Shown here piece after piece: positions 3,625-23,992 of a stretch of 64,000 nt of DNA. Made by a program: the position numbers and the translations under genes. Numbering within the stretch: the stretch's first letter is position 1; every line of letters starts with the position of its first letter. Source of the stretch: Magnetospiraceae bacterium. Its GTDB lineage: Bacteria > Pseudomonadota > Alphaproteobacteria > Rhodospirillales > JBMYUJ01. Below the pieces are notes generated by a model that was not told the origin of the DNA, made no database searches, and saw nothing but the letters and a program-made list of their open reading frames with translations. The stretch lies in the NCBI GenBank assembly GCA_049605255.1, contig JBMYUJ010000001.1, positions 25,486 through 89,485 of the forward strand, written 5' to 3'.

Positions 3625-5574
3625 TTAACGCAAAACGGTCGTAGCAACGCGGAAACCAGTTGTGCCGACATCGACTTTGCGGCTGGCTGATCGCCAGTTT
3701 CGGTTCGCGGCGCGGATATCTCGGGGAATGTTAAACCAAGAGCCTCCCCGCATGATGTGACTAGAGCATTTACCGGTCTTACGTGCGCTACCGTCAGTTA
3801 GCTTCCCAGCGTAATTTTGGCTATAGCAGTCCTCGACCCATTCCCAAACGTTACCATGCATATCATGTACACCGAAAGAGTTCGCGAGTTTTGTTCCTAC
3901 AGGATGAGTCTTTTTCCCGCTATTACGATCGTACCAAGCAACACTTTCCAAGCACCGATCGGCGTTCCCGCACGAGTATTTAAAGTGCGTATACCCTCTG
4001 GCTACATACTCCCATTCTGATTCACTCAATAGGCGATATTGCTGGCCAGTACGCTGGCTAAGTTTTTGCACAAACGATTGCGCGTCATCCCATGAGACAT
4101 TTTCAACAGGATTTTGGTCATGTTTGAACCGACTCGGGTTATTTCCCATCACTGCGCGCCATTCAGCCTGCGTGACCTCAAACTTACCTACCGCGAACGC
4201 ATAATCAATTGTAACTAGATGTGTGGGCTTTTCGCTGCTATGCCCGCCTCCAAAATTGTCACCCATACGAAATTGTCCAGACGGAATAATGACCATTTCA
4301 GGGCAACCTGCGCAGTCTCTGAATACCGAACCTGGAGCGCCCTTAGCGAAGTTCACGGCAACAGGCTCTGAATTTGCTCGCTTTTCTTGCAGCAGCTCCC
4401 CATGCACAAACCCCACCACTCCACCAGCCAGCGATACGCGATACCAGCCAGACTCCCGGTCTTGCCCCGTAACCTCAACCTTGTCACCGGTATCGAGAAC
4501 AAAGATTTTACTATGGTTGGCGCCGGGACCGGTCCGCACATTTACTTTGCCAGAGCTCCGCACATACATGGTTTTCGAAAATGCCTGGATACCGGATGTT
4601 TCGGGCGGTGGCTCCCCTGTCGCAGAAGGCATGGGCTTAGGTGTGGGGGCCGGCGTCAACGCCGTTAATTTCAGCTTTGCCGCGCTCGCGTAGCGACCCG
4701 TTGGGTAGTCCTTCAGGTACGCTTCAAAGGCTGCCTTCGTCCCGAGACCTTCTGCAGTCTGCCACAAGACCGTCTCCGGGTCTGGTCCCGCTGGCGGTTC
4801 CACTGTAACCTTCGACCCTTTGGGCACGAAATAGAAGTCGTGCGGTACCGACCCCTCGCGCCATGGCCGCTGGTTGCCTTTGGTATCGGCTAGCACTTTC
4901 GCGGTAGTCCGCTTAAACACCTGCTCCAAGGTGAGCCCTGGCTTATCCATGTAGGCAAGCAGCGCGCGCGTAAAGATGCCGTTGCCCCCCTCAGGGCCAT
5001 CTTGCGCAACCTGCCCGGGAGCCGCCGCATACACAACAATTATGCTCTGCTCATTGCCCTTCATTTCGAGGGTGCGCAGCCCCTTGGCCGCAGATCGGGT
5101 GCGCTTGGGCAGAGGATTGTCGCGGCAGGCATCGAGGATCAAGATATTGGTGGGGGTTTCTGTATACTGCATGGAGGACAGAAGCTCCTGGGCATTAACA
5201 CCCCATGCTTGTAGGTCAGACTCCACTAGGATGTTGCTGTCCGATGGTATCAACCAATTCGTGCCCCGGCCATCTTGGATGCCGTGCCCGGCATAGTAGA
5301 CCAAGGCCACCTGGGCATCGTGCAATTCGTTCTCGAACTCGGTTTTGCGGCGGAAGAAGGTGGTGCGGTCGACGTTGATCCCGTTAATCACCTTGAACCC
5401 AATCGCCTTGAGTTTCTTGGTGACGGCCCGGGCGTCGTTGCCAGCGTTGCTCAAACTCGGCAGCGTTTTGTAGGTATCGTTCCCGATCACCAATGCCACC
5501 CGCTTCTCGGCCTGGGCAACACTTCCAGTGGCCGTGATCAAGACCAGGACGAACAGTAACAGCTTGACACGCAC
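3625..5574 (-). CDS. Secreted caspase-like (peptidase C14) + SH3b + FGE-sulfatase domain protein
   Basis: Signal peptide, RVALVIGN, YYAGHG/ILDACR dyad, VNVRTGPG (SH3b), DMHGNVWEWVED and GFRVA (FGE); GTG start chosen from GAGGGG SD. Confidence 0.85.
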   Translation of the reverse strand: MRVKLLLFVLVLITATGSVAQAEKRVALVIGNDTYKTLPSLSNAGNDARAVTKKLKAIGFKVINGINVDRTTFFRRKTEFENELHDAQVALVYYAGHGIQDGRGTNWLIPSDSNILVESDLQAWGVNAQELLSSMQYTETPTNILILDACRDNPLPKRTRSAAKGLRTLEMKGNEQSIIVVYAAAPGQVAQDGPEGGNGIFTRALLAYMDKPGLTLEQVFKRTTAKVLADTKGNQRPWREGSVPHDFYFVPKGSKVTVEPPAGPDPETVLWQTAEGLGTKAAFEAYLKDYPTGRYASAAKLKLTALTPAPTPKPMPSATGEPPPETSGIQAFSKTMYVRSSGKVNVRTGPGANHSKIFVLDTGDKVEVTGQDRESGWYRVSLAGGVVGFVHGELLQEKRANSEPVAVNFAKGAPGSVFRDCAGCPEMVIIPSGQFRMGDNFGGGHSSEKPTHLVTIDYAFAVGKFEVTQAEWRAVMGNNPSRFKHDQNPVENVSWDDAQSFVQKLSQRTGQQYRLLSESEWEYVARGYTHFKYSCGNADRCLESVAWYDRNSGKKTHPVGTKLANSFGVHDMHGNVWEWVEDCYSQNYAGKLTDGSARKTGKCSSHIMRGGSWFNIPRDIRAANRNWRSASRKVDVGTTGFRVATTVLR

Positions 5575-5576
5575 CG

Positions 5577-5894
5577 CTAATATCCCCTCGCGCAACTCGC
5601 GTATGGGGCCGATACTAACCTTACAATCGGCTCAAAGTCTATGAGGCGGTTCACATTCGCGGGATCTGTCAACTGGAAGTAAATTGCATGCGAACCGCAG
5701 ACGCTTCGGCGGTAGCGTTGGCGGATGTAATCCACGGCGGGAAAATGCTGCGGGTTTTCTGCGATTTCCTGGAAACGCTTTTTCAGCTTGTCGCGGTAGC
5801 GTTCCGATTGCGCGGCGCCGAAATGCTCCAGGCCGTAGAGGGCGATATTCAGCAGGTCCTGTTCCGCCCTCGGGGAGAGGACGTAGTCAGCCAC
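5577..5894 (-). CDS. parE: ParE/RelE-family toxin, C-terminus probably disrupted
   Basis: MADYVLSPRAEQDL...FG..Q..RY...YRRSVCGSHAIYF; sequence departs from the family pattern afterwards. Confidence 0.75.
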   Translation of the reverse strand: MADYVLSPRAEQDLLNIALYGLEHFGAAQSERYRDKLKKRFQEIAENPQHFPAVDYIRQRYRRSVCGSHAIYFQLTDPANVNRLIDFEPIVRLVSAPYASCARGY

Positions 5895-6165
5895 GACCGG
5901 CCCTGAAGCGCGCGCTGGCTTCCTGCCAGATGTCGTCGATGGATTTGTCGCTGTATCCGTTTTGCTTGACGCTTTGTTCGGCCTCGATCAGCGCGGCGCG
6001 GATGGCCTCTATTTCCGCCGGGGTTTCCTGCTCGCGCGATTGGCGTTCGCGGATCAGGTCGCGGATGACCTCGCTCTCGTTGCCATAGCGCCCGGTTTCG
6101 ATCTGCGCCTTGATCCAGCTGTTTTGCTGGTCCGTCACGGAGATGCTTTTCTTGACCATGCCCAT
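5887..6165 (-). CDS. parD: ParD-family antitoxin
   Basis: KKSISVTDQQ..WIKAQIETGRYGNESEVIRDLIR RHH motif; overlaps parE start. Confidence 0.85.
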   Translation of the reverse strand: MGMVKKSISVTDQQNSWIKAQIETGRYGNESEVIRDLIRERQSREQETPAEIEAIRAALIEAEQSVKQNGYSDKSIDDIWQEASARFRAGRG

Positions 6166-6252
6166 GGGGGCCTCCCAGGAAACGGATGGGAAATTGTCCT
6201 ACTCAGTAGGATATATTGCTCTGAACTCGGCGGGCAAGGTTTTTCACCGATC

Positions 6253-6280
6253 AAAGAAAACCCCGCCATGGCGGCGGGGT
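6253..6280 (-). terminator. Intrinsic terminator
   Basis: ACCCCGCC-GCCAT-GGCGGGGT followed by TTTCTTT on the minus strand. Confidence 0.7.
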
Positions 6281-6288
6281 GAAGTTGG

Positions 6289-6552
6289 TTATTCGCTCGG
6301 CTCCTTGTCGAAATCGGGAACGATGAGGATGCCTTGGGCATCCGAGGGATCGTAGATCGTGACCGTCCTGTTTTTCCGGTCACGGACGGCGATGGTCAGG
6401 TTATTGGGTCGTGCGTGGCCATAAATCCGCGCCCGGGTGTCCATTTCGATGTACGTCTCGACCGTCGCCTTCATGAGCTTGAGAAGAACATCGCGGTCCA
6501 CCGGTATGGAACGGGACCGAACCGGCGGATTCTTGAGTTCCTTGTCGGACAT
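6289..6552 (-). CDS. Hypothetical protein
   Basis: 87 aa ORF with GGGAGG SD, ends at a terminator. Confidence 0.6.
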   Translation of the reverse strand: MSDKELKNPPVRSRSIPVDRDVLLKLMKATVETYIEMDTRARIYGHARPNNLTIAVRDRKNRTVTIYDPSDAQGILIVPDFDKEPSE

Positions 6553-6576
6553 GTCGCGTCCTCCCTCGCCGCGCCA

Positions 6577-6936
6577 TCAGTACTCCGCCGCCAACATGAC
6601 CGTCAGGACGCGGGTGGTCTTGGCGGGATCGGCGGGGTCTTCGGAACCCCAGGTCATGGTCTTGTCGTAGTAGTCGATTTTCCAAATGATCTTGTGGTCC
6701 TCGACCTTCATGACGGCACAATCGTGTTCGCCGTAGGGGTCGTTGTCCCCGTTGAAGTCATTGAACCGGGCGACCGCCGTCAGGATGCGGGTCTGGATTC
6801 CCAGGTCCAGGGCAGCGATGCCGCTGGTGAGCATGACCTTGCCGCCCTGGTGGTGATAGCGCAGCCGGTCGTTGAGGGTGCGGATACGTTCCGCGCGCTG
6901 TTTGTCGTCCATTGCAGTCCTCCTGCGTTTTGCCAC
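6577..6936 (-). CDS. DUF3768 family protein
   Basis: IRTLNDRLR, NDPYGEHD, WKIDYYD, SEDPADP..T.RVLTVMLA.EY; real start probably near 6912. Confidence 0.85.
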   Translation of the reverse strand: MAKRRRTAMDDKQRAERIRTLNDRLRYHHQGGKVMLTSGIAALDLGIQTRILTAVARFNDFNGDNDPYGEHDCAVMKVEDHKIIWKIDYYDKTMTWGSEDPADPAKTTRVLTVMLAAEY

Positions 6937-6981
6937 GCTCGACCCATTCGAGCGCGGCAGTCGGAGGAGGACGGCGGGGGA

Positions 6982-7485
6982 TCACATTTCCTGGCTCTTG
7001 TAGTAGGCGAGGGCGTAGCCGGCGGCCTCGAACATGGCCATGCGGAATCGTTCCGGGTCCCAGGGGTGGCGCTTCGTAGGCGCGCGGCCCAGTTCCGGGA
7101 GCTGCTGGAGGATGACGCTGGCGATCTTGTCCTTGTTGACCTTGCCGTCGATGTAAAAGAACCGGTTGGCCACCGCGCGGGCGACGAAGCGAACCTCTAT
7201 GGACCGAAGACTGGCCTGTTTCTCGACGCGCTTGATCAGCGCCTTGGATGTATCACCCTTGCGGCAACTCTTGTCCTTGGGGTTCTCCAGGATCAGCACG
7301 TCGGGCAGAAACCAGGCGATCTTGTCGGCAATCATATCGATGACCGCCTGCTCGGACTTGCCCCGCAAATCCATGACGCCCCAGTCGATGGCGAAATGCG
7401 GGCCTTCGAGCACCACAAACCCCACTCGGCCCGAGGCCATGGACAGCGCCATGACGCGCTCGAACCCATTACTCACTTGAGTCAT
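6982..7485 (-). CDS. RuvC/RNase H-like fold protein with degenerate first catalytic motif
   Basis: VMALSMASGRVGFVVLEG...DWG...PDVLILE...NKDKIA...FEAAGYAL matches RuvC layout. Confidence 0.5.
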   Translation of the reverse strand: MTQVSNGFERVMALSMASGRVGFVVLEGPHFAIDWGVMDLRGKSEQAVIDMIADKIAWFLPDVLILENPKDKSCRKGDTSKALIKRVEKQASLRSIEVRFVARAVANRFFYIDGKVNKDKIASVILQQLPELGRAPTKRHPWDPERFRMAMFEAAGYALAYYKSQEM

Positions 7486-7759
7486 AGGATGGTATTGAAT
7501 CTGATAATCGGTGTTGGCGGGCGCGGGTGGCCACATTGGCCCTGGCCTCTTCCATGACACCGGGGAAAATGCGATCCGCCGGCACGCCGAAAACCGCCTG
7601 ACAGCCGAAAGCCACCTCCAGCGACGGCATGCGCCGCCGCCTCTCAAGTTTTGATATGGCGGTATCCTGCGGCAAACCGAGCAAATGGGCCAACTGCCAT
7701 TGAGTCAGCCCAGCCCGCTTGCGGTAGGTCCGTAAGTAACATGGAAGCGTCTTCGACAT
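7469..7759 (-). CDS. XRE-family HTH regulator
   Basis: LRTYRKRAGLTQWQLAHLLG...ISKLERRRRMPSLE. Confidence 0.85.
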   Translation of the reverse strand: MSKTLPCYLRTYRKRAGLTQWQLAHLLGLPQDTAISKLERRRRMPSLEVAFGCQAVFGVPADRIFPGVMEEARANVATRARQHRLSDSIPSYDSSE

Positions 7760-7938
7760 AAGACGAGAAAACGGATGTCGGCGGCCAGCGCCCGGCCAAC
7801 ATCACGAAGGATACGGGAATTGCTTTTCCGCAAAAGACCGAGAAACCTGCCCCCACAAGCAAGTTTAAAGGACTGGTTGACAGACAGAGGATATCATGGC
7901 GTAGGAAACTGACAATAGGCTGAAGCGGAACTTACGAG

Positions 7939-9342
7939 ATGACAAAGGCTCTAAGCCAGGCCCGTTTCGATCTTTACGCTCTTGGGACGCGTCAATCTAT
8001 GACTCGGCTCTACTCGGAGGAGCTGTCCTATTGGTCTGATTTGGATGAGACTGTTATTGGCGCTGTGATCAGAGACCTGGTCGACGATGATTTTGGCTGG
8101 GTGATGCTTGCGCGGGACCGGGTTGGGCGTTTTCGAGCAATCAAGATCGAAACTGACTTTTCTACGGAACGACAGGCAATGGCGCAGCTACGCTTAGCGA
8201 TCGCCGACACCGTTAAAAGCGAGAACGTTACCGAAGCGGCGGTGCAGGGAGATGAGCCCAATGCCCCTTATGACCTGCTGACCGTTGGGGCTGAAGTTAA
8301 CCCCGAATCGCTTCATCCATATTTCAAAGAGCTTGTAGAGCGCCCCGGCCGCGCACCCGCCAGGGCAGTTGTGCGCGAAATCGGGCCTTGGTTGGCGCCG
8401 AGTGATCCGCATTTTGTTAAGGAGTTTCAACAGAATCAGTTTGATCAACGTCTATGGGAACTTTTCCTATGGGCGGCATTCCGGGAACTCGGATTTGATG
8501 TCGAACAACTTGAAGCACCGGATTTCGGTTGTTTCGCCCCGGCGATTTCGTTCACTGTAGAGGCCACCACAGCAGCTCCATCAACCATGGGGCCTCTTGC
8601 CTCCCATCCTGAGCCAAAGACACCTGAGGAACGAGCTGAATTCCTCTCGGGCTATATGCCGATGAAGTACGGGTCGAGCTTGGTAAGCAAGATTCGGAAA
8701 ACGAACAAGGACGGCAAGCATTACTGGGAACTTGATCCCGCTTCAGATAAGCCTTTTATCCTTGCTATTGCGGATTTCCACAAGCCGGCCGAAAAAGGGG
8801 AAATCGGCTCGATGGTCTATACCCAATCCGCGTTGTGGTTGTACCTCTATGGCCGTCGACTGACTTGGGAGGATCGTGATGGTCATCCAGTATTGGTACC
8901 CACAAAGGCTGCAACACATGTGTACAGGGAAAAGGTAATTCCTTCGGGCTTCTTCGATCAGCCTGGCGCGGAGCATGTTTCAGCAGTTCTGTTTTCCAAC
9001 GCGGGGACGATAGCGAAATTAGACCGCATGGGCGTAGTTGCTGGTTTTGGCGCAGATAAACATCACTACTATCGTGTCGGGCAGATGCATAATCCTGATC
9101 CGAACGCGGTGATGGGAACACCATTCTCAGTGAATATTTCCGAACCTGAGTACATGGAATTCTGGTCCGATGAACTTCAGATTTTCCACAACCCAAACGC
9201 CGTGAGACCATTACCAACTGAATGGTTTGGCGGGATAGCACAGCATTTCTTCCTGGATGGAAATCTTTACTCGGATTACCCGGACGGTCATGTTTTATCG
9301 TCATACACCATGCTCATGCAGTTGAAGGAAGGCCGAGATTAA
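7939..9342 (+). CDS. Hypothetical protein, putative PD-(D/E)xK-like nuclease
   Basis: 467 aa, lower GC; FDQRLWEL...APDF...TVEATT motif. Confidence 0.5.
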   Translation: MTKALSQARFDLYALGTRQSMTRLYSEELSYWSDLDETVIGAVIRDLVDDDFGWVMLARDRVGRFRAIKIETDFSTERQAMAQLRLAIADTVKSENVTEAAVQGDEPNAPYDLLTVGAEVNPESLHPYFKELVERPGRAPARAVVREIGPWLAPSDPHFVKEFQQNQFDQRLWELFLWAAFRELGFDVEQLEAPDFGCFAPAISFTVEATTAAPSTMGPLASHPEPKTPEERAEFLSGYMPMKYGSSLVSKIRKTNKDGKHYWELDPASDKPFILAIADFHKPAEKGEIGSMVYTQSALWLYLYGRRLTWEDRDGHPVLVPTKAATHVYREKVIPSGFFDQPGAEHVSAVLFSNAGTIAKLDRMGVVAGFGADKHHYYRVGQMHNPDPNAVMGTPFSVNISEPEYMEFWSDELQIFHNPNAVRPLPTEWFGGIAQHFFLDGNLYSDYPDGHVLSSYTMLMQLKEGRD

Positions 9343-14977: not shown

Positions 14978-16089
14978 GTGATGGAAGCTGATCCAATCAC
15001 CTACATCGGTCACACCAACGCACGGAAGCCATATCGTCGATTCGGCATCCGCCAAAATGATCGGCCCTCCCATTTTTACATCATCGGTCGAACGGGTGTC
15101 GGCAAATCAACAATGCTGGAGTACATGTCCCGGCAGGACATGGAGAACGGCGAGGGCCTCACCCTTCTCGATCCCCACGGAGACCTTGTGCGCCGGCTAG
15201 CGGCGATGGTTCCGGAATATCGAAGCGACGACGTGGTATATTTCGATGTGACCGATCCGGAGCAGCCCTATGGCTACAACCCCTTGCGCCGGATCGCACC
15301 TGAGCGCCGCGCTCTTGCGGCCTCCGGCATGATGGAGGTATTTCGAAAGCTTTGGGGCGAACGTGCCTGGGGGCAACGGATGGAGTACATTTTCCGAAAC
15401 GTACTCCTGGCCCTCTTGGATCAGCCCAGGGCCGACTTGACTGACGTTCAGCGTCTCTTGCTGAATAAGGATTGTCGTCTTCGTGCGGCCCAAAATGTCA
15501 CCCATCCGCCGGTTCGCGATTTCTGGCTCAAGGAGTACCCCAAGTACACTTACCGGTACCGAGCCGAAGCCATTGCCCCGATCCAGAGCAAGATCGGGGC
15601 CTTCCTTGCTGATCCGCGATTGCACCGAATTTTTGTGGAGCCGGAAAGACCGCTCTCCCTCCGAAAGATCATGGACAAGAACAAGGTCCTGCTAGTCAAT
15701 CTCAGCATCGGCCAGATCGGCGCGGACGCAGCGGCGTTGCTTGGTGGTTTACTGGTCACAACCGTCGGCTTGGCCGCTATGAGCCGGGCCGATACGCTCG
15801 AAACTCAACGCCGGCGCCATTGGCTCTATGTGGATGAGTTCCAGTCCTTCACCACGCTGTCGATGGCAAACATGCTCGCCGAGCTACGCAAATACAGCGT
15901 CGGCATGATCATGAGCCACCAGTACCTACACCAGCTCGATCCGGATATCCGCCACGCGGTTCTCGGCAACGCGGGGACGGTAGTCTCGTTCAGGCTCGGG
16001 GCTGAGGACGCCTCGATCCTTGCACGTGAGTTGGCGCCGGTCTTCTCAGCCGCCGACCTGATCAACCTTCCGAACTACGACATGGCGCT
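14978..16089 (+). pseudogene. VirD4/TraD-like coupling ATPase, 5' part, split by prophage
   Basis: GRTGVGKS, LLDPHGD, LYVDEFQ, ELRKY, HQYLHQL; frame resumes at 59896. Confidence 0.9.
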
Positions 16090-16096
16090 TGTTAGG

Positions 16097-16262
16097 GGAC
16101 ACTAGGTTTTGAAGTAACCGGGATATGGTGGCATTTAATGGCACATAACGAAATAGGGTTTGGTTCTCAACGGTTTAACCTGTCACCCCCACCCCCCGGC
16201 GCGATTTTTGGTTTTTGAAGTGGCTTCGAAAAAATCGCGGTTTCGGACACTTGATTTTGAAG
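16097..16262 (+). repeat. Left-end putative transposase binding sites
   Basis: GGACACTAGGTTTTGAAG (16097-16114), ...GGTTTTTGAAG (ends 16220), GGACACTTGATTTTGAAG (16245-16262). Confidence 0.8.
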
Positions 16263-16269
16263 CGGAAAA

Positions 16270-16713
16270 TCAAAAGATATCCCACCATTCGACGGGTTCC
16301 GCCTTGTGGGGGATACCCTGATCCGGGAGCCAAACCCTATACTCCAGATCGCCCGGCCCGCACGTGAGGCGGATGCGGGTTCCGTAGTGATCCCGCCCCT
16401 CTACATAGCCGCGAACGGCGCTGGCGCAGCTATAACCCAACAAACGCAGAAATTTTTCGCTGTACCCGAGAACACTATCAAGGGAAGCCGACAGAGTTAA
16501 CCCAACAGGGAGGCGGCTTGCCGCAACGGATGGACTGTAATTAGCGCTCGTAAGAATTTCTATTTCTTTTAAAATATCGGTACTGGCTTCCTGCGGACTA
16601 CGTGTTTTTGCAGAATTATAAGCAAAAAAACCAATTATTCCAAAAACGACTATAATATAAATAATTGCTTTTAAACCGAATTTGCTTTCAGCGTCTTTTT
16701 CTTCCCCGCTCAT
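16270..16713 (-). CDS. Membrane-anchored moron protein
   Basis: Low GC, one N-terminal TM, downstream of the repressor. Confidence 0.65.
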   Translation of the reverse strand: MSGEEKDAESKFGLKAIIYIIVVFGIIGFFAYNSAKTRSPQEASTDILKEIEILTSANYSPSVAASRLPVGLTLSASLDSVLGYSEKFLRLLGYSCASAVRGYVEGRDHYGTRIRLTCGPGDLEYRVWLPDQGIPHKAEPVEWWDIF

Positions 16714-16722
16714 TATTCTGTC

Positions 16723-16992
16723 CTAATTATTAAAGTTTGGGGGTGGTAGCGTTTCGAGAGACGCCCTCAAATCATTGCTACTCAGGGGGTTTTGGCCAAA
16801 TAATTTTGTTTCGTAAACAGGGATTAGGTCGATAGGTTTGCGGGCACCGAAGAAGTAACCATCCTCTGTAAGCCGATAAATGGGGATAAGGTCATTGTTT
16901 TCATTATCCTTTGTCTTTGAAAAATCGGCCCTATTGTCATTTGAGGCGATAGAACGGTTTATGATTTTCTCGTATATTGATTTTTTCTTCAT
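16723..16992 (-). CDS. Hypothetical moron protein
   Basis: Low GC, 89 aa, internal repeat DLIPIY/DLIPVY. Confidence 0.5.
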   Translation of the reverse strand: MKKKSIYEKIINRSIASNDNRADFSKTKDNENNDLIPIYRLTEDGYFFGARKPIDLIPVYETKLFGQNPLSSNDLRASLETLPPPNFNN

Positions 16993-17015: not shown

Positions 17016-17525
17016 TTAATCATCTTCACCCCCGAAGGCGATGGTCACGCCCTCGATTTCAATATCGTCTGATTCCTCTTCGTCTGTTTCCTCTTTGTTC
17101 TCACCTACCAAGAGTATCCGATACAGATCGAGAATCAACTCCGATTTGCGCGGAATAGACATGGTTTCCCCTTTGATTTGCTCTTGTTGGTGCGCGCTGT
17201 GAATGGCGTTTTGCAAGGTTTTCAGGTCGATATCGGCGGAAACCTGCGTTTTCTCGCTGAGTTTGCGAGGGCCCTTGCCGGTGGCGATCCAATCCAACGA
17301 AACATCTGCCGCGCGAGATAGCGCAACCAAGGCGAAAAACGCTGGTTTCGATTTTCCGTCTCGCCATCGAGCCAACTGTTCTTCGGTTTCCTTGATGAAA
17401 GAAGCCGCATTTTTGAGGCCACCCAAATCCGATATGATCGAAGAAATGCGGACTCCCAGTTCCCTAGTGTAACTGGGAATCTCAGGTCCCGGATCTTCTT
17501 GGGCCTTAATAGCTCTGTTAACCAT
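17016..17525 (-). CDS. Prophage repressor (XRE HTH)
   Basis: QLARWRDGKSKP...ADVSLDWIATGKGP; divergent from ner-like gene. Confidence 0.8.
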   Translation of the reverse strand: MVNRAIKAQEDPGPEIPSYTRELGVRISSIISDLGGLKNAASFIKETEEQLARWRDGKSKPAFFALVALSRAADVSLDWIATGKGPRKLSEKTQVSADIDLKTLQNAIHSAHQQEQIKGETMSIPRKSELILDLYRILLVGENKEETDEEESDDIEIEGVTIAFGGEDD

Positions 17526-17693: not shown

Positions 17694-17987
17694 ATGGAAT
17701 CGGATTGGCGCTGGTGGCGGGTGCTGGGGGAGCTGCGGGAACGGGGGCTGGATATTACGACCCTCGCCGAACGCCACGGCTACTCCAAGTTCGCGTTGTT
17801 CCGGGTCAAGCTTGACCCTTATCACGAACCGCAAACCATCATCGCCCAGGCCCTGGGGCTGACCCCCCAGGAAATCTGGCCATCCCGGTATCATCGTGAT
17901 GGCTCTCCGGTCTCTCCGACCCTCTGGAAACTTAAACATAGCAATCGGGCGCCCAGCGGTCATCGTCAAAAAAGCAAGGTGGCGTAG
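17694..17987 (+). CDS. ner: Ner-like transcriptional regulator
   Basis: LRERGLDITTLA...IIAQALGLTPQEIWPSRY. Confidence 0.85.
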   Translation: MESDWRWWRVLGELRERGLDITTLAERHGYSKFALFRVKLDPYHEPQTIIAQALGLTPQEIWPSRYHRDGSPVSPTLWKLKHSNRAPSGHRQKSKVA

Positions 17988-17990
17988 ACG

Positions 17991-18200
17991 ATGGACAAGC
18001 GCCCCAATATTTTTGTCCGATTTGCCGCCCGGATTCTTCGTCCGGTGATCAGGGAGGCGATCCGTCAGGATCGCTCTCGTTTTGACCAAGCGTCAACTGG
18101 AACAAATCTTGAATCTCCTGAGCGACTTCGTCAGGCGTTGCTTGCTGAAGCCAGGAATGAAGAGCGCGTTGCCGCTCGGGTCCGGCGTCAATGCTCATGA
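17991..18200 (+). CDS. Early hypothetical protein
   Basis: Starts 4 nt after ner stop; first member of the coupled chain. Confidence 0.45.
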   Translation: MDKRPNIFVRFAARILRPVIREAIRQDRSRFDQASTGTNLESPERLRQALLAEARNEERVAARVRRQCS

Positions 18201-18483
18201 TTGCCTGGGTCACCATAACGCGGCGCGGATCAGGCCTTGGTGTCTCGTCGAGGTCCCGGAACAAGGCCTCCAGAATGCCGACGCTACCGGCCATGATTGG
18301 CCCCACCCTTTTGTCGGTGGCCCCCGCCAAGACAGTGGCAGCCATGAGGGATTTCAACAGATCATTAGGTGCTATGGCCTGGGCTCGAACAAGCTCTACA
18401 GCAAGGCCAATCATCAACCATTTATTGGCGTCGGATTTTGCCCGTAGCATTGCAAGTTCTTTCCTAAGTTCAATCTCATCCAT
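18049..18483 (-). CDS. Antisense hypothetical protein (144 aa)
   Basis: GAAAGGG SD, MDEIELRKELAMLRAK..., protein-like helical composition. Confidence 0.6.
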   Translation of the reverse strand: MDEIELRKELAMLRAKSDANKWLMIGLAVELVRAQAIAPNDLLKSLMAATVLAGATDKRVGPIMAGSVGILEALFRDLDETPRPDPRRVMVTQAIMSIDAGPERQRALHSWLQQATPDEVAQEIQDLFQLTLGQNESDPDGSPP

Positions 18484-18679
18484 TCTAATTTCCCTTTCTG
18501 GTCGTTGTGGTGACACCAGTTTAGGGAAATACCGGCGGTGCGCCATCCATACTGCGCGCCGCGCCTCCGTCTCCGGGGCTTCTGGAGACGCCTCCCTGTC
18601 AAACCTGGCGCTCTGTCCTTCGGCTTCGGCCCAAGGCCAGGGCGCCTTTTTCTTTTCTCGAACCGGAGACCGCCCGTGA
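18197..18679 (+). CDS. Possible bridging ORF 1
   Basis: ATGA overlap upstream, GTGA overlap with ParB-like gene; shadow-like composition. Confidence 0.3.
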   Translation: MIAWVTITRRGSGLGVSSRSRNKASRMPTLPAMIGPTLLSVAPAKTVAAMRDFNRSLGAMAWARTSSTARPIINHLLASDFARSIASSFLSSISSILISLSGRCGDTSLGKYRRCAIHTARRASVSGASGDASLSNLALCPSASAQGQGAFFFSRTGDRP

Positions 18680-19578
18680 GTGATGCCGTTTTGTTGATCG
18701 ATCCCCTTGATATCGAGGTTTTGGATCGGGCCCGCCCCGTGAAGGTGGAGCGGGTTACTGCCCTTGCAGAGATGATCACCGCCGACGGGCAGCAAGATCC
18801 CATCGAAGTGCGGGAAACACCGGATGGAAAAATGCCCTATCGCCTGGTGGCAGGCGCGCACCGGCATGCGGCTTGTGCTGGTTTAGGGATCGCGGTGCGG
18901 GCGATTGTTTATGACCTTGATGACGATGCAGCCGCCCTTAGAGAGATCGACGAAAACCTTGTTCGCTTCGAGCTAACAGCGCTGGAGCGGGCGGTGTTTG
19001 TTGGTGAGCGGGCGCGTATCTGGAAAAAAATGCACCCCGAAAGCAAGCGCGGCGGGGACCGGAAAAGCGCCATATATCAGGCGGAAGATCAAAGCGCAGC
19101 CGATTCATTTTGTTCTTTCACGGACGAGACCAGCGTCCTTTTGGGTCGCGGGCGGCGGACGCTGCAGCAGTCAATCCGGATTTTTGAGGCGATCCCGAAA
19201 GCGCATCGTGACCTCCTGTGGAATACCCGGCTGGAGGATCAGCATGGGGCACTTTACGACATCGCGCGGCACCCGGCGGACATCCAGAAACTGATCATCG
19301 ATAGGATGCTGCGCGAGGAACGCCCTTGCGCGTCCGTGGATGCCGCCCTGGGGGAAATTCAAGGTCGCACGAAGCCAAAGGTGGATGAGCGTCAATATCA
19401 GGGATTGATGGATACCTATTCCCGCGCGAAGGACCCGGTTAAGCGGCGCGTTTTGACCACCTTCGCCACCCAGGGCCTGGTGATGCTGCCCACGGGCGAA
19501 GGGTTCGACGCCCTGAAAGATGGGGACCGGCTGAAGTTTGAGGCCTTCCTCGAAACCCAGGGCTACCGGAGGGTCTGA
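18676..19578 (+). CDS. ParB N-terminal domain protein
   Basis: GQQDPIEVR, YRLVAGAHRHAA, EIDENLVRFELTALER, RGGDRKS. Confidence 0.85.
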   Translation: MSDAVLLIDPLDIEVLDRARPVKVERVTALAEMITADGQQDPIEVRETPDGKMPYRLVAGAHRHAACAGLGIAVRAIVYDLDDDAAALREIDENLVRFELTALERAVFVGERARIWKKMHPESKRGGDRKSAIYQAEDQSAADSFCSFTDETSVLLGRGRRTLQQSIRIFEAIPKAHRDLLWNTRLEDQHGALYDIARHPADIQKLIIDRMLREERPCASVDAALGEIQGRTKPKVDERQYQGLMDTYSRAKDPVKRRVLTTFATQGLVMLPTGEGFDALKDGDRLKFEAFLETQGYRRV

Positions 19579-20141
19579 TGGTCCGGGTTAATCAACCGAA
19601 TACAGCGGAAACATTGTTGTCTATTGAACCACGTACCGTGCTTCTGGGGGCATCTCAATCCATGAGCGCCCCAAAAGATTTGACCAGGTACCAAGAATAT
19701 CGTTCGGCAATCCCAAAGGGATGGTTGGCGATTTGTCCTGTCTTCTTTGAAGTTCAGCAAATGACTGCCCGATTAGATGCGCCAGATATTGCTGATCCCG
19801 TGAACTTAGTTGGCCATATTTTTCAGGGATGTTTTCTGTGTCGCCGTCCGCAAATAACGCGCGAACAAGCCTGCCAAGAATTTCTAGCTGATGCCGATTT
19901 GGGGGTGGTTTACCTCGATCCCGTGACGGGTCTACCTGGCATAAGGTTGCGAGACCCGCAACTTTACGGATTGCTTCGCTTGGAAAGAACCACTGAATAT
20001 CGCGGCTCAGGTCCATCCGACTTTCCAATAGTGCGCGTTTTTTATCCTTTTCCGGCATTCCAACCCCTTTCTGGTCAGCAGCAAAGTTTGCCCCCCATCG
20101 AGTTTTGTGTCGAGGGGATATCCGGGGTGTCGGCATGGTAA
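19578..20141 (+). CDS. Possible bridging ORF 2
   Basis: TGATG overlap with ParB stop; ends across the next ATG. Confidence 0.35.
   Translation: MVRVNQPNTAETLLSIEPRTVLLGASQSMSAPKDLTRYQEYRSAIPKGWLAICPVFFEVQQMTARLDAPDIADPVNLVGHIFQGCFLCRRPQITREQACQEFLADADLGVVYLDPVTGLPGIRLRDPQLYGLLRLERTTEYRGSGPSDFPIVRVFYPFPAFQPLSGQQQSLPPIEFCVEGISGVSAW
19621..20058 (-). CDS. Antisense hypothetical protein
   Basis: Lower GC; MPEKDKKRALLESRMDLSRDIQW... after AAGGGG SD. Confidence 0.5.
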   Translation of the reverse strand: MPEKDKKRALLESRMDLSRDIQWFFPSEAIRKVAGLATLCQVDPSRDRGKPPPNRHQLEILGRLVRALFADGDTENIPEKYGQLSSRDQQYLAHLIGQSFAELQRRQDKSPTIPLGLPNDILGTWSNLLGRSWIEMPPEARYVVQ

Positions 20142-20599
20142 GGGCGCGGGGGGATCATCGGACTATGGACCTCTTGAACTGGACACCGCCAGAGACGGTA
20201 GTGCGGCGGTTCGATGATGCGCGGGTGCGGGCGGCGGACCTGCGATCCAAGATCGCCCGCGCGGTGGCCGAAGCACTGTCTGATACCCCGCTCGATCGGA
20301 AGGAGATCGCCAGGCGGGCCTCCGAATGGCTGGGAGAGACCATCAGCCCCGCGATGCTGAATAAATATGCCTCGCCTTCGAGCGACGATCATCCGCTGCC
20401 TCTGGCGAAGTTTTTAGCCATCGTGGCGGCGACGGAAGACCCCCGGTTGTTGCAGGTTTTCGCCGAAATGTTCGGCTGGTCGGTGATTGATGACCGGTAT
20501 CTGCCCTGGGTCGAAGTTGGCCAGCTTGCTGATGCAAAAGAGGAATTTGACAAGGCCTATGCGGCGGCGCGGGCGAAAACCCGGAGGGTGGGAAAATGA
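20135..20599 (+). CDS. Phage regulatory protein (CII-like DNA-binding)
   Basis: Typical Mu-like early gene pattern: EIARRASEWLGETISPAMLNKYASPS. Confidence 0.65.
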   Translation: MVRARGDHRTMDLLNWTPPETVVRRFDDARVRAADLRSKIARAVAEALSDTPLDRKEIARRASEWLGETISPAMLNKYASPSSDDHPLPLAKFLAIVAATEDPRLLQVFAEMFGWSVIDDRYLPWVEVGQLADAKEEFDKAYAAARAKTRRVGK

Positions 20600-21105
20600 C
20601 AAGCGGGACCGCTAAAATTCCTGGAATGGGTCCAGGTCATCATCAAAAGGCCAGAAGCTGGGATACCCAATCATTAAATCGAGAGAAAGACGCGCCGCCG
20701 TGCTGGTTGTGTCTCGAGCCGACCCGCCAATGGCGTTTTGTATATCCAGAGCAGACGCCAGGAGCGCCAACCCCGCCCGCGCATAATACAGGGCGGCAAG
20801 AACAAAGATTCCACGCTGTTCGGGAGACAGATTCAGATGCCTTTGCTTCCGCTTCGCGGGGGTCAGCCGAATATACTCTAAAAGCAGATCGTGGTTATCG
20901 GTACAGACTTTCTGAAAGCCCTGTTGCCCAAGATGAGCGCATAGGCCGGAAACCTTGTTTTTCCCTAATCCGAGAATCTCTTCCAGAAGTTCTCCGCAGA
21001 GCGCTTCGGCTTTTGCAGCGGCTGATTCAAAGTTCATATCCTTCCTCCCAGCATAAACCCTCGGTTGAAGGGGACCTTACCCGTACCGGCGGAGAGAAGC
21101 GATGA
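20596..21105 (+). CDS. Possible bridging ORF 3
   Basis: ATGA overlaps at both ends; coupled to transposase start. Confidence 0.35.
   Translation: MTSGTAKIPGMGPGHHQKARSWDTQSLNREKDAPPCWLCLEPTRQWRFVYPEQTPGAPTPPAHNTGRQEQRFHAVRETDSDAFASASRGSAEYTLKADRGYRYRLSESPVAQDERIGRKPCFSLIRESLPEVLRRALRLLQRLIQSSYPSSQHKPSVEGDLTRTGGEKR
20612..21037 (-). CDS. Antisense hypothetical protein (141 aa)
   Basis: GGAGGAAGG SD, lower GC, helical protein-like sequence. Confidence 0.6.
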   Translation of the reverse strand: MNFESAAAKAEALCGELLEEILGLGKNKVSGLCAHLGQQGFQKVCTDNHDLLLEYIRLTPAKRKQRHLNLSPEQRGIFVLAALYYARAGLALLASALDIQNAIGGSARDTTSTAARLSLDLMIGYPSFWPFDDDLDPFQEF

Positions 21106-23219
21106 AACAATGGTTCACCGCCCAGGAGATCGCCGAGGCCCGGTTGCCGGGAATGCCCGCCGTGAAAAGGGCAGTGAATGCCCTGGCGGCGCGTGAGGGT
21201 TGGGCGGAGCGTATAGACCCCACCGCAGGCCCCTTGGCGCGGCCCCGGGCCGGGCGGGGTGGCGGGATGGAATATCATCTGTCGTTACTGCCGAGCGAGG
21301 CGCGGATCGCGTTGTTGGCGCAAGTGGACATGGAGACCGCAACCGGTCCATCGGACCATGGGCGTTCCGATCTTTGGACCTGGTTTGACAAACAGACGGA
21401 CAAGAAAAAACAGACGGCGCGGGTGCGGCTGGGGCTGATCCGAAAAGTGCAGGCCCTGCACCGGTCTGGGATGCTGAAGAATTTCGCGGCGGCCACGGTG
21501 GCGGCGGAGGCCGGGGTTTCGGTGGGGTCGATCTATGGCTGGGAACGGGCCTGCCGCGCGCTGCCGGAAAGCGATTGGTTGCCCGCCTTGGCGCCGGGGC
21601 ATACGGGGCGCCGCAAGACGGCGGAAATGTCCGATGGGGCCTGGGAAGCCTTCAAGACGGATTATCTGCGCCCCGAGCAGCCAAACATGGAGAGCTGCTA
21701 TCGGCGGGTGACGTCTGCGGGGTCTGATAAGGGGTGGATTATTCCCTGTTTAAAGACCTTTCAACGCCGCTTGGAACGGGAGTTCAGTCCGGCGGTCGTG
21801 GTGCTGGCCCGAGAAGGGATCGATGCCTTGAAGCGCATGTATCCGGCGCAGGATCGGGATCGATCGGTGTTCCATGCGCTCGAGGCGGTGAACGCCGACG
21901 GCCATCGCTGGGACGTGTTTTGCCGCTGGCCGGACGGGGAGATCGCCCGGCCCATGATGGTGGCTATCCAGGACCTTTATTCGGGGAAAATCCTATCGTG
22001 GCGCATCGACCGATCGGAGAACTCCCACAGTGTGCGGCTCGCCTTCGGCGATCTGATCGAAACCTATGGGATTCCGAAAAGCGCCTATCTGGATAACGGG
22101 CGGGGGTTTGCCGCGAAGATGCTGACCGGTGGAACAAAGACCCGGTTTCGGTTCCGGGTCCGCCCCGAAGACCCGGACGGTATCCTGACCCAGTTGGGGG
22201 TCGATATCGTCTGGACCACGCCCTATTCGGGTCAATCCAAACCCATCGAACGGGCCTTTCGGGACCTTTGCGCAGATATCGCCAAGCACCCGGCGCTGGC
22301 GGGCGCTTACACGGGGAACCGCCCGGATGCGAAGCCGGAAAACTATGCCAGCCGCGCGGTGGATATTGAAGAGTTCCTTGGGATCGTCGAAAGCGGAATC
22401 ACCGAACACAATGCCCGGCCTGGTCGGCGCGGTGGGGTTTGCGCCGGGCGGTCCTTCGATCAGGTGTTCGCCGAGTCCTATGGATGCGCGCCGATCCAAC
22501 AGGCGACGGAGGAGCAATATCGGCTCTGGCTGTTGGCGGCGGAAGGGGTGACCCCGCGCAAGCCGGATGGGGCGATCCATTTGATGGGGAACCGGTTCTG
22601 GGGCGAGTTTCTGCATGGGCATATTTCCGGGAAGGTGGTGGCCCGGTTTGACCCCCAGAACCTGCATGTGGGCCTGCATGTGTATGGGCTGGATGGGCGT
22701 TATCTAGGCTTTGCCGACGTGATCGAGGCGGTGGGCTTTAATGATTTGCAGGCCGCCAAGGACCATGCGCGGGAGCGGCGGCGCTGGATGCGGGCGCAGC
22801 GGGACATGCTGAAGGCCGAACGGCAGATGGGCATCGCGGAGCTGGCCTCCATGCTGCCGGAGACGGGCCCGGCGCCCCTGCCAGAAACGAAGATCGTGAG
22901 CCTGCCCCGGAATATCCCGGCGGCAGCGATGCAAAAACCGTCGGCTGAGCCGGTGCCCTTGACGGAGGAAGAACAGGCCGCCGCCGATGCCGCCTTTGCT
23001 GCGATGAGTGGGGCGAATGTGACGCCGTTTCCGGCGCCCGAGGCGAGCGCAGAGGTGCCCGAAAGTTTCGACAGTGATGAAGCCTTCGCCCGCTGGGCGA
23101 TGGCCCATCCTGAGGCGTTGGACCGGCGGCAAGAAGTGTATCTCGCCACCCTGTTGGAGAACCGGAGTTTCCGCATGCTGTTGGGAATTGCCGAAGAAGA
23201 AAAGAGCCACGCTGGCTGA
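21102..23219 (+). CDS. Mu-like DDE transposase (MuA)
   Basis: N-terminal Mu-type HTH; ADGH, LDNG and KPIERAF triad; Mu transposase C-terminal region. Confidence 0.95.
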   Translation: MKQWFTAQEIAEARLPGMPAVKRAVNALAAREGWAERIDPTAGPLARPRAGRGGGMEYHLSLLPSEARIALLAQVDMETATGPSDHGRSDLWTWFDKQTDKKKQTARVRLGLIRKVQALHRSGMLKNFAAATVAAEAGVSVGSIYGWERACRALPESDWLPALAPGHTGRRKTAEMSDGAWEAFKTDYLRPEQPNMESCYRRVTSAGSDKGWIIPCLKTFQRRLEREFSPAVVVLAREGIDALKRMYPAQDRDRSVFHALEAVNADGHRWDVFCRWPDGEIARPMMVAIQDLYSGKILSWRIDRSENSHSVRLAFGDLIETYGIPKSAYLDNGRGFAAKMLTGGTKTRFRFRVRPEDPDGILTQLGVDIVWTTPYSGQSKPIERAFRDLCADIAKHPALAGAYTGNRPDAKPENYASRAVDIEEFLGIVESGITEHNARPGRRGGVCAGRSFDQVFAESYGCAPIQQATEEQYRLWLLAAEGVTPRKPDGAIHLMGNRFWGEFLHGHISGKVVARFDPQNLHVGLHVYGLDGRYLGFADVIEAVGFNDLQAAKDHARERRRWMRAQRDMLKAERQMGIAELASMLPETGPAPLPETKIVSLPRNIPAAAMQKPSAEPVPLTEEEQAAADAAFAAMSGANVTPFPAPEASAEVPESFDSDEAFARWAMAHPEALDRRQEVYLATLLENRSFRMLLGIAEEEKSHAG

Positions 23220-23260: not shown

Positions 23261-23992
23261 ATGTACACGACCTTTGTCAGGACCGCAAACGTCAACCGCT
23301 TCCTATCGGCGGTATCGGCCATCGATCAGCGGGGGGCGTCGGAAGCCTCTTGGTTGTTGATTTCCGGCGATGCCGGGCTTGGTAAATCAAAAACGGCGGA
23401 ATGGTGGGCGACCCATAACGACGCCATCGAAATCCGCCTCAAGGCTGCGGCAACACCGCATTGGTTTTTGACCGACCTGGTCGGCGTGCTGGGGGAGGTT
23501 GCCCCCGCCCATAGCTGCGAGAAGCTGTTTTATCAGGCGATGGATCATCTATCGAAATCACCGCAGCCGATTGTGGTCGATGAGGTGGAAAACGTCCTTA
23601 AAGGCGACCGGCTGGAGACCTTGGAGATGGTCCGGGATATTTCCGACATGACGGAGGCGCCGGTGATCCTGGTGGGCCGGGAATATGTGTGGGGCCGCCT
23701 TAGCCGCCATAAGCATTTTCGGACCCGGATTTCCGCCCGCGCGGATTTTTCTCCCCTCAGTTTGGAGGATGTAACCAAATGCTTCGGCGAGTTGAGCGAG
23801 GTGCCCGTCGATGAAGAGGTGATCGCGGATGTGCACAAAGCCTCGGAAGGGCATATCCGCGAGGTCGTGAACGCCATCGCCAATGCGGAGCGGATCGGCA
23901 AGCGTGCGCCCGGTGAGACGGTTACCCGCAAATCTGTTGGTAATACCTCCCTCGTGCGCGATTGGCAGCGCACCAAGGCGGGGGCGGTTTAG
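23261..23992 (+). CDS. Transposition AAA ATPase (MuB-like)
   Basis: GDAGLGKS, IVVDEVE, PVILVG; follows transposase. Confidence 0.9.
   Translation: MYTTFVRTANVNRFLSAVSAIDQRGASEASWLLISGDAGLGKSKTAEWWATHNDAIEIRLKAAATPHWFLTDLVGVLGEVAPAHSCEKLFYQAMDHLSKSPQPIVVDEVENVLKGDRLETLEMVRDISDMTEAPVILVGREYVWGRLSRHKHFRTRISARADFSPLSLEDVTKCFGELSEVPVDEEVIADVHKASEGHIREVVNAIANAERIGKRAPGETVTRKSVGNTSLVRDWQRTKAGAV

Follow-up and report, generated by a model that had tools for sequence, protein, structure and literature searches.

Introduction

Genes lying backwards inside a phage operon, with both strands open, have a close precedent in the B3-like transposable phage Fc02. Here we describe three such genes (A1, A2 and A3), faced by start/stop-coupled sense open reading frames (ORFs; S0 to S3), in the early operon of a Mu-like prophage of a Magnetospiraceae bacterium. 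They lie between positions 17991 and 21105 of a 64,000-nucleotide stretch (GenBank assembly GCA_049605255.1, contig JBMYUJ010000001.1, positions 25,486 to 89,485), hereafter called the window, whose coordinates are used throughout. A survey of about 190 related loci and known phages gives good support, from sequence comparison, for selection that keeps a sense frame open over backward genes, and we infer that ribosome transit preventing Rho polarity is the best explanation.

In the Fc02 lysogen, a transcript that starts at a distal promoter crosses the gene following ner in antisense direction and continues into the repressor gene (PMC9936078). Two genes there overlap over their full length, gene 10 on the early strand, directly following ner, and olg1 on the strand of the repressor, and both excluded superinfection when supplied from plasmids (PMC9936078). 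The window resembles the Fc02 gene 10/olg1-olg2 arrangement, compared by description rather than by sequence, in having a repressor-strand gene antisense to the ORF after ner, with both strands open (PMC9936078). It differs in that gene 10 encodes a functional exclusion protein, whereas S0 and S1 look like shadows; the passages of the Fc02 paper that deal with this pair propose no anti-polarity role and report no codon signature (PMC9936078). Full-text literature searching found no paper stating the bridge rule developed below, and the nearest was this description of an overlapping pair, which in those passages comes without such an explanation (PMC9936078).

A second precedent is the HkaP-like family (phrog_1244: hkaP of HK620, gp37 of HK446, orf25 of D3112 and gp10 of RcWaterboi), likewise a small accessory gene set backwards in an operon; the HK620 record labels hkaP a putative superinfection exclusion protein. 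A1, A2 and A3 fall outside phrog_1244, and the parallel case occurs in relatives only. Members of this family have 2–4 operon-strand stops in the N-antiterminated pL operons of lambdoid phages, versus none or one in Mu-like phages of G+C at least 0.53. In HK620 (L203), the pL-strand terminator tL1 is annotated at 1929–1952, inside hkaP, which runs backwards in the pL operon; this antiterminated operon therefore tolerates both stops and a terminator there.

Morons are accessory genes inserted between the backbone genes of temperate phages, and the classic ones carry their own promoter and terminator. A2 and A3 resemble them in their insertion between genes that abut in relatives, their deviant G+C and their likely expression in the lysogen, but a simple scan, for one promoter type, found no promoter and no convincing terminator of their own, and a terminator would block the operon around them. 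In translational coupling, stop and start codons overlap (ATGA, TGATG), and translation shields nascent RNA from Rho. Here, by contrast, ribosomes would be translating another gene's reverse complement, kept open by the synonymous choices of that gene, with no functional product needed. Finally, G+C-rich genomes have long shadow ORFs that face real genes, usually codon on codon (for example, PMC3454372). The excess reported here differs in being measured against same-loci controls matched for G+C at third codon positions (GC3), and in being specific to genes embedded backwards in operons.

A chain of sense ORFs from Ner to the transposase

Gene order (Ner, ParB-like, cII-like, MuA and MuB, with a divergent repressor) identifies the region as the left end of a Mu-like prophage with an early operon of the RcapMu/RR1-B type, carrying extra DNA at two junctions. 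The chain from Ner to the transposase comprises the following features.

17694–17987, plus strand: Ner-like gene, the first of the early operon (PF13693, 3.5e-14; phrog_769, 1.4e-20)
17991–18200, plus strand: bridge ORF S0, 69 codons, beginning 3 nucleotides past the Ner stop, opposite the 3' third of A1
18049–18483, minus strand: antisense gene A1, 144 amino acids, phrog_33093 family
18197–18679, plus strand: bridge ORF S1, 160 codons, shadow-like, joined to S0 by ATGA and to ParB by GTGA
18676–19578, plus strand: ParB-like gene, GTG start with GGAG 7 nucleotides upstream (phrog_3264, 1.2e-43; PF02195, 25.4 bits, just below the 26.3 cut-off)
19578–20141, plus strand: bridge ORF S2, 187 codons, joined to ParB by TGATG, its stop overlapping the cII-like start
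19621–20058, minus strand: antisense gene A2, 145 amino acids, of an unnamed protein family
20135–20599, plus strand: cII-like (CP76 / phrog_2345) regulator (phrog_2345, 2.5e-33; PF06892, 1.8e-7)
20596–21105, plus strand: bridge ORF S3, 169 codons, shadow-like, ATGA at both ends
20612–21037, minus strand: antisense gene A3, 141 amino acids, with a strong Shine-Dalgarno (SD) sequence and the best coding frame
21102–23219, plus strand: Mu-type DDE transposase, MuA (PF02914, 3.6e-56; PF09039, 2.6e-32; PF02316; PF09299; phrog_310, 3e-163)

The Ner stop (TAG, 17985–17987) is followed by acg and the ATG at 17991, and the further junctions are ATGA (18197), GTGA (18676), TGATG (19576), ATGGTAA (20135), ATGA (20596) and ATGA (21102). 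At every junction from Ner to MuA, a start codon lies within a few bases of the preceding stop, and these overlapping stop/start motifs predict translational coupling or re-initiation along the chain. An earlier, sequence-only reading of the window had described this chain, and all its ORFs and junctions were found where it had placed them. The SD-preceded antisense ORFs that it had listed at 18049–18483, 19621–20058 and 20612–21037 are also present, each behind an SD-like purine-rich stretch, which is strongest for A3 (GGGAGGAAGGAT before the ATG), clear for A2 (AAAGGGG) and weaker for A1 (AAGGGA). Its picture of a single sense ORF spanning each antisense gene holds for A2 and A3 but not for A1, which is covered by two ATGA-joined frames (17991–18200 and 18197–18679).

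Some starts involve a choice: the ORF listing begins S1 at ATG 18191, two codons ahead of the 18197 used by the sequence-only reading; GTG 18676 for ParB and ATG 20135 for the cII-like gene are reasonable choices, and ATG 20165 is also possible for the latter. A plus-strand hairpin with a weak T-run occurs at 18056–18075 (GGCGATCC-GTCA-GGATCGCT, then CTCGTTTTGA), inside the last A1 codons and about 70 nucleotides past the Ner stop; if it were a functional terminator, it would affect read-through from Ner.

Coding status of the antisense and sense ORFs

A1, A2 and A3 are, on homology and composition, real genes, because relatives at 26–48% identity align in the true frame only and coding scores agree. 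A1 matches phrog_33093 (E 3e-11; residues 6–140 on profile positions 10–140 of 147) and shares 31% identity, across 95% of its length, with a gene present in nine records of B3-like Pseudomonas phages; there, the relative lies on the repressor strand, downstream of the repressor and outside the early operon. An exhaustive HMMER search gave 15 further full-length relatives of A2 (E 8.5e-29 to 8e-5, 28–48% identity), and the A2 relative in another Mu-like phage (L205) is likewise antisense and likewise spanned. A3 has a relative in another Mu-like prophage (L030), 26% identical over 140 residues and also antisense.

Other searches returned little. A word-indexed protein search gave only the query itself for A2, A3 and S2; for A2 this was a miss, as the 15 HMMER relatives show, and 'orphan' verdicts from such a search alone are unsafe for small proteins. 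Searching the phage records with tblastn gave two chance-level matches for A2 and none for A3 or S2, and the phrog_1244 (HkaP-like) profile matched none of A1, A2 and A3. At the DNA level, no relative was found among 50,697 phage records, and a single 47-base match in 60 related genomes. Matches in three DNA runs consisted of identical contigs and short unrelated pieces, with no polymorphisms that could show frame-specific selection, and no RNA run was listed as containing this DNA.

Coding potential was scored with a three-periodic Markov model trained on 967 long ORFs of the host genome. The antisense frame was best over A1 (sense frames 43–58 nats worse) and over A3 (34–40 nats worse), while A2 tied with S2; a model trained on the phage's own backbone genes agreed. 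Public gene calls on identical DNA also conflict in strand at this place, with A2 called on a 121-kb contig and S2 (19578–20141) on a 32-kb contig. Single-sequence AlphaFold2 models of A2 and S2 had a mean predicted local distance difference test (pLDDT) score of 44.6 and 38.8, respectively, neither high enough to support a judgement.

S1 and S3 score as non-coding shadow frames, 34–43 nats under the antisense frame, and the composition of S1 is shadow-like (A2 term 0.11, C2 term 0.39, where A2 is not the gene); this bears out what the sequence-only reading had suspected of these two links. Pfam and PHROG scans gave no family match for the four S ORFs of the window. Of 19 sense ORFs taken from relatives, 18 likewise had no match, and the remaining one was a Rha-like gene in L031, a locus with an erroneous antisense call. 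Between loci, S-frame similarity was far weaker than A-frame similarity (7e-9 vs 5e-28 for L205; 7e-4 vs 1.6e-28 for L090), and no S query gave a cross-locus match stronger than the A-frame match. The comparison between loci shows the bridge peptides not to be conserved in their own right, and they are probably meaningless in themselves.

Backward genes as insertions between backbone genes

In RcapMu, RR1-B, RcWaterboi and prophages including L014, L018 and L019, the ParB-like gene, the cII-like gene and the transposase gene follow one another directly or with a four-base overlap. At these junctions, closed in relatives, the window has about 560 (ParB/cII) and about 500 (cII/MuA) extra bases. 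Since ParB, cII and MuA directly adjoin in RcapMu and RR1-B, alignment of gene orders shows A2 and A3 to be insertions between backbone genes; the A1 slot is variable. The G+C of the cassettes is 0.50–0.55 (0.50–0.53 for the two long segments), compared to 0.59–0.64 for the backbone genes. The foreign origin proposed by the sequence-only reading is thus supported by the lower G+C and, for A2 and A3, by insertion relative to RcapMu and RR1-B.

Insertions running from ATGA to ATGA were 2 mod 3 long in four cases, namely the window (506 bases), L013 (599), L093 (653) and L175 (608). A scan of the cassettes, covering one promoter type only, gave no sigma-70-like site (2.3 expected) and nine terminator-like sites (5.6 expected), none convincing.

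Open sense frames over backward genes in related loci

On the window alone, we permuted synonymous codons within each antisense gene and counted a coupled chain when each start lay within -7 to +5 nucleotides of the preceding stop. The S frame stayed open in 0.10 (A2) and 0.023 (A3) of permutations; over A1 no single frame is open. With the real spacers, a coupled chain arose in 0.26, 0.27 and 0.03 of trials for the three cassettes (product about 2e-3), and with the spacers shuffled too, in 0.017, 0.025 and 0.019. This is suggestive of more than chance, for a pattern picked out of a very large scan and a coupling window chosen after the junctions had been viewed.

The survey drew on 26 loci from same-phylum genomes with the cII-like family (27 of 401 genomes matched) and, through MuA alignment at 44–61% identity, on 80 loci from species-representative genomes and 80 from viral contigs. 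Annotated phage records were added, and L204, a 2-kb metagenome fragment, was not used. Searches of viral contigs with single proteins gave no locus for the cII-like gene and two weak partial loci for ParB.

Embedded phrog_1244 genes were found in RcWaterboi (gp10), L013, L093, L144, L175, RC1, PeaS-P1, VW-6B and D3112/DMS3 (orf25). The family was antisense to both flanking genes in 12 of the 13 contexts inspected, including the D3112-like terminase junction and the pL operon of HK620 and HK446, with 689R2 ambiguous. Other backward families also recur: that of A3 (window, L030), that of A2 (window, L205) and three unnamed ones, in L102/L090, L060/L049/L078 and L015b/L137. The backward gene is crossed by one bridge ORF, with ATGA or TGATG at each end, in L013, L093, L175 and phage RC1; the downstream end is exact in L144 and L102, and the upstream end in RcWaterboi, L030 and L137. 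Two-link chains with exact joints cross the backward genes of L136, L082 and L049. The L205 bridge over the A2 relative may start at GTGA or TGAcgATG on the upstream stop, and ends TGAccATG at the next gene.

Two of these loci have peculiarities of their own. The transposase of L030 is split over two frames (4590–4910 and 4774–6708), with the N-terminal DNA-binding part separate, by frameshift, sequencing error or a broken gene. In L015 (the same locus as L039 and L118; about 6840–7160 and 7382–8098), the antisense gene adjoining the transposase is accompanied, about 500 bases upstream on its own strand, by a partial copy of 52% identity.

A periodic-Markov gene caller made 20 antisense calls in 19 of 100 loci, three of them wrong or doubtful and at least two false. 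The call in L008 overlaps annotated ParB and cII genes, that in L031 faces a Rha-family sense gene, and that in L019 is probably wrong, its sense ORF having a relative in L061. Because of such false calls, the main counts were limited to 19 homology-supported embedded genes. Left uncounted, for want of homology support, were L082, L136, L010, L024, L187 and L083, of which three have a tight chain. L205 and the A2 cassette of the window (tight chain, null 0.084) also stand outside the 19, the count having been run before the A2 relatives were known; L015a (complex local duplication) and L062 (probably not embedded) were dropped.

For the null, synonymous codons were redrawn from the usage of confident genes of the same loci (1,840 genes) within 0.05 GC3, with protein, neighbours and spacers kept. 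Tight chains were present over 12 of the 19 genes versus 2.80 expected (Poisson-binomial P 1.8e-8), over 10 of 17 without the window (2.41 expected, P 6e-7) and over 5 of 10 without phrog_1244 (1.96 expected, P 0.012). A loose chain (±25 nucleotides) was found in 18 of 19 (10.4 expected, P 2e-5), and a single fully open sense frame in 10 of 18 (1.65 expected, P 2.4e-8). As this null already grants borrowed junctions by keeping the spacers fixed, the excess comes from the open frame over several hundred bases.

The GC3-matched null is calibrated and, if anything, conservative, because 666 control genes in three sets fit it, erring towards too many predicted open frames: 90 of 220 sense genes had one (96.4 expected), 28 of 154 non-embedded minus-strand genes (35.7 expected) and 15 of 292 low-GC3 genes (23.2 expected). 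The sequence-only reading had called for a look at whether relatives carry other antisense cargo and still keep a coupled sense frame open; the outcome was positive and well above a calibrated null. Its claim that the coupling exceeds chance stands through this excess in relatives; the window alone is suggestive, and exact junctions are partly cheap.

The codons of the backward genes carry a matching signature. In the codon-on-codon frame, a stop can arise on the operon strand only opposite a TTA, CTA or TCA codon of the backward gene. In nine embedded phrog_1244 genes, TCA made up 2 of 55 Ser4 codons, CTA 1 of 137 Leu4 codons and TTA 1 of 19 TTR codons, compared to 0.20, 0.06 and 0.19 in controls of GC3 0.58–0.70, and 0.14, 0.08 and 0.15 in loci of G+C at least 0.60. 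Overall, these genes have four TTA/CTA/TCA codons versus 21.2 expected (P 6e-6). Their A-ending Ala, Pro, Thr, Val, Gly and Arg codons stand at 0.10–0.30, like controls or above.

The A2 and A3 families (window, L205, L030) use another frame relation, with first codon positions facing, and all four genes are open, with per-gene P values of 0.021–0.054 (GC3-matched null) and 0.014–0.131 (permutation). The non-embedded A1 relative (JBD25/Ps56) has seven TTA/CTA/TCA codons and at least two stops in every opposite frame, compared to one stop in the codon-on-codon frame of embedded A1. Across the phrog_1244 gene of HK620, HK446 and 689R2 (G+C 0.40–0.46; context of 689R2 unclear), there are 2–4 operon-strand stops. 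For HK620 and HK446 this fits N-antiterminated operons that would need no bridges, a comparison confounded with composition.

A proposed role for ribosome transit

The explanation that we prefer, and hold to be about evenly poised between right and wrong, is that the backward genes keep the operon strand open for ribosome transit, by which Rho polarity would be avoided. After induction, ribosomes finishing an upstream gene would re-initiate at the bridge and carry translation through the backward gene. The early transcript would then never expose to Rho a loading site made of several hundred untranslated and relatively C-rich bases, and transit would deliver ribosomes to the next start codon. 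The host has a rho gene (TIGR00767, 712 bits, over the cut-off), and the C–G skew of operon-strand RNA is +0.02 to +0.03 in the cassettes versus -0.11 to -0.15 in the flanking genes.

In the lysogen, the backward genes would probably be expressed from their own promoter or from the repressor's distal promoter, as published for Fc02. The antisense lysogenic transcript from the distal promoter of that phage makes lysogenic expression of A1 plausible, and by the same analogy A1 could plausibly dampen the early mRNA of the lysogen (PMC9936078).

A more general rule would be that a backward gene settles in a non-antiterminated operon only if its synonymous codons keep the operon strand open and its length preserves the frame (2 mod 3 for ATGA-to-ATGA insertions). 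We put this forward tentatively, as something a little short of an even chance.

Several observations weigh against ribosome transit, or against the rule. A tight chain is lacking in 7 of the 19 (L030, VW-6B, D3112, L090, L060, L078 and L137), so that the sequence-only reading, right that the sense frame is kept open over backward cargo at independent loci, was too strong in holding such genes tolerated only on that condition. Six of the seven pass only the loose criterion, for which the null already expects 10.4 of 19, and VW-6B (G+C 0.47) has three stops and not even a loose chain. The signal leans on one family, phrog_1244 providing 7 of the 12 tight chains, and its members with operon-strand stops all have G+C 0.40–0.47, so that composition and context are confounded. 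The cases lack phylogenetic independence, the upstream stop and the downstream start of each were assigned by hand after the maps had been viewed, and the restriction to homology-supported genes is itself a selection. The excess of C over G in bridge RNA is small. MuA has its own GGAG, and coupling is unneeded for its initiation. Lastly, MuA begins ATGA (Met-Lys) in most relatives, and upstream genes have the NTGA ending that is also seen in uninterrupted relatives, where they overlap the following gene. With a bridge start and stop already there, the exact junctions are less surprising than they look, and they may be inherited rather than newly selected.

Alternative explanations

The alternative that survives best, although we consider it unlikely, is that the sense ORFs truly code for proteins and that the cassettes are antiparallel overlapping pairs with two functional products, the frame being open because the sense protein is needed. 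The full overlap of Fc02 gene 10 and olg1, with superinfection exclusion from both strands on plasmids, provides a precedent and keeps this alternative alive (PMC9936078), above all for S2, which ties with A2 in coding score and has a 33%-identical counterpart in L205. It fits S1 and S3 poorly, given their deficit of 34–43 nats and shadow-like composition. The S ORFs are also without family match (four of four in the window, 18 of 19 in relatives), and their similarity across loci is absent or far weaker than that of the A genes. In addition, bridges opposite one and the same family vary in length, and some are split into two frames.

Selection might also favour the open frame other than through Rho, if translation of the bridge shielded the early mRNA from RNase or displaced the antisense transcript or a converging RNA polymerase. 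The same sequence evidence would serve, nothing in it singles out Rho, and the excess of C over G is modest. Against it, Rho polarity on untranslated RNA within an operon is the established default; we regard this version as improbable.

Chance combined with inheritance is distinctly improbable as a full account. According to it, shadow ORFs are common in G+C-rich DNA, the ATGA junctions are ancestral, and the excess reflects case selection and an imperfect codon null. In its favour, 35% of the confident genes in the first 30 loci face at least one fully open frame on the other strand, mostly the codon-on-codon one. The ends of a bridge could also be ancestral, with MuA starting ATGA in most relatives and cII ending NTGA where it overlaps MuA in uninterrupted ones. 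With the phage's own G+C-rich codon usage, the per-case probability of a chain is 0.15–0.9, and definitions were set after the data had been viewed. The GC3-matched null, however, calibrated on 666 controls, overpredicts open frames; the depletion is confined to the three stop-mirroring codons and does not extend to A-ending codons generally; and the excess holds without the window and, more weakly, without the main family.

The simplest architecture would be a plain chain of sense genes without interruption, in which the antisense ORFs are spurious shadows of the S ORFs. One public call on an identical contig did choose S2 over A2, but we rejected this reading on homology as scarcely credible, since it is contradicted by antisense relatives at 26–48% identity and by the coding scores.

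Flanking genes of the prophage

On either side of the chain from Ner to MuA lie two further genes of the prophage.

17016–17525, minus strand: repressor-like gene, divergent from the early operon (phrog_3037, 8.3e-8; weak, sub-cut-off HTH_3 and CI-repressor Pfam matches)
23261–23992, plus strand: MuB-like transposition protein (tblastn similarity to the annotated 'DNA transposition protein' of RcapMu-type loci)

Downstream of the repressor and on the same strand, 16270–16992 (minus strand) holds two ORFs (147 and 89 amino acids) of G+C 0.47, which resemble further lysogen-expressed accessory genes. Just left of these repressor-side genes, a 375-amino-acid ORF with a P-loop (GRTGVGKST) at 14978–16105 (plus strand) may belong to another mobile element.

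Implications

If ribosome transit is indeed what the open frames serve, codon choice in a backward gene would couple to the expression of its opposite-strand neighbours, a constraint absent from standard synonymous-site models. It would leave a signature, readable from sequence only, that marks backward genes within transcription units needing read-through. Annotators and gene callers should then expect both strands to be open at such sites and discard neither blindly.

The general rule, if true, would add a second, strand-crossing layer of selection on backward genes, which would show in a loss of TTA, CTA and TCA, or of the corresponding dicodons. Real overlapping genes such as Fc02 gene 10 could arise from a standing pool of bridge ORFs, and translation for transit only would be a testable route by which new overlapping genes arise.

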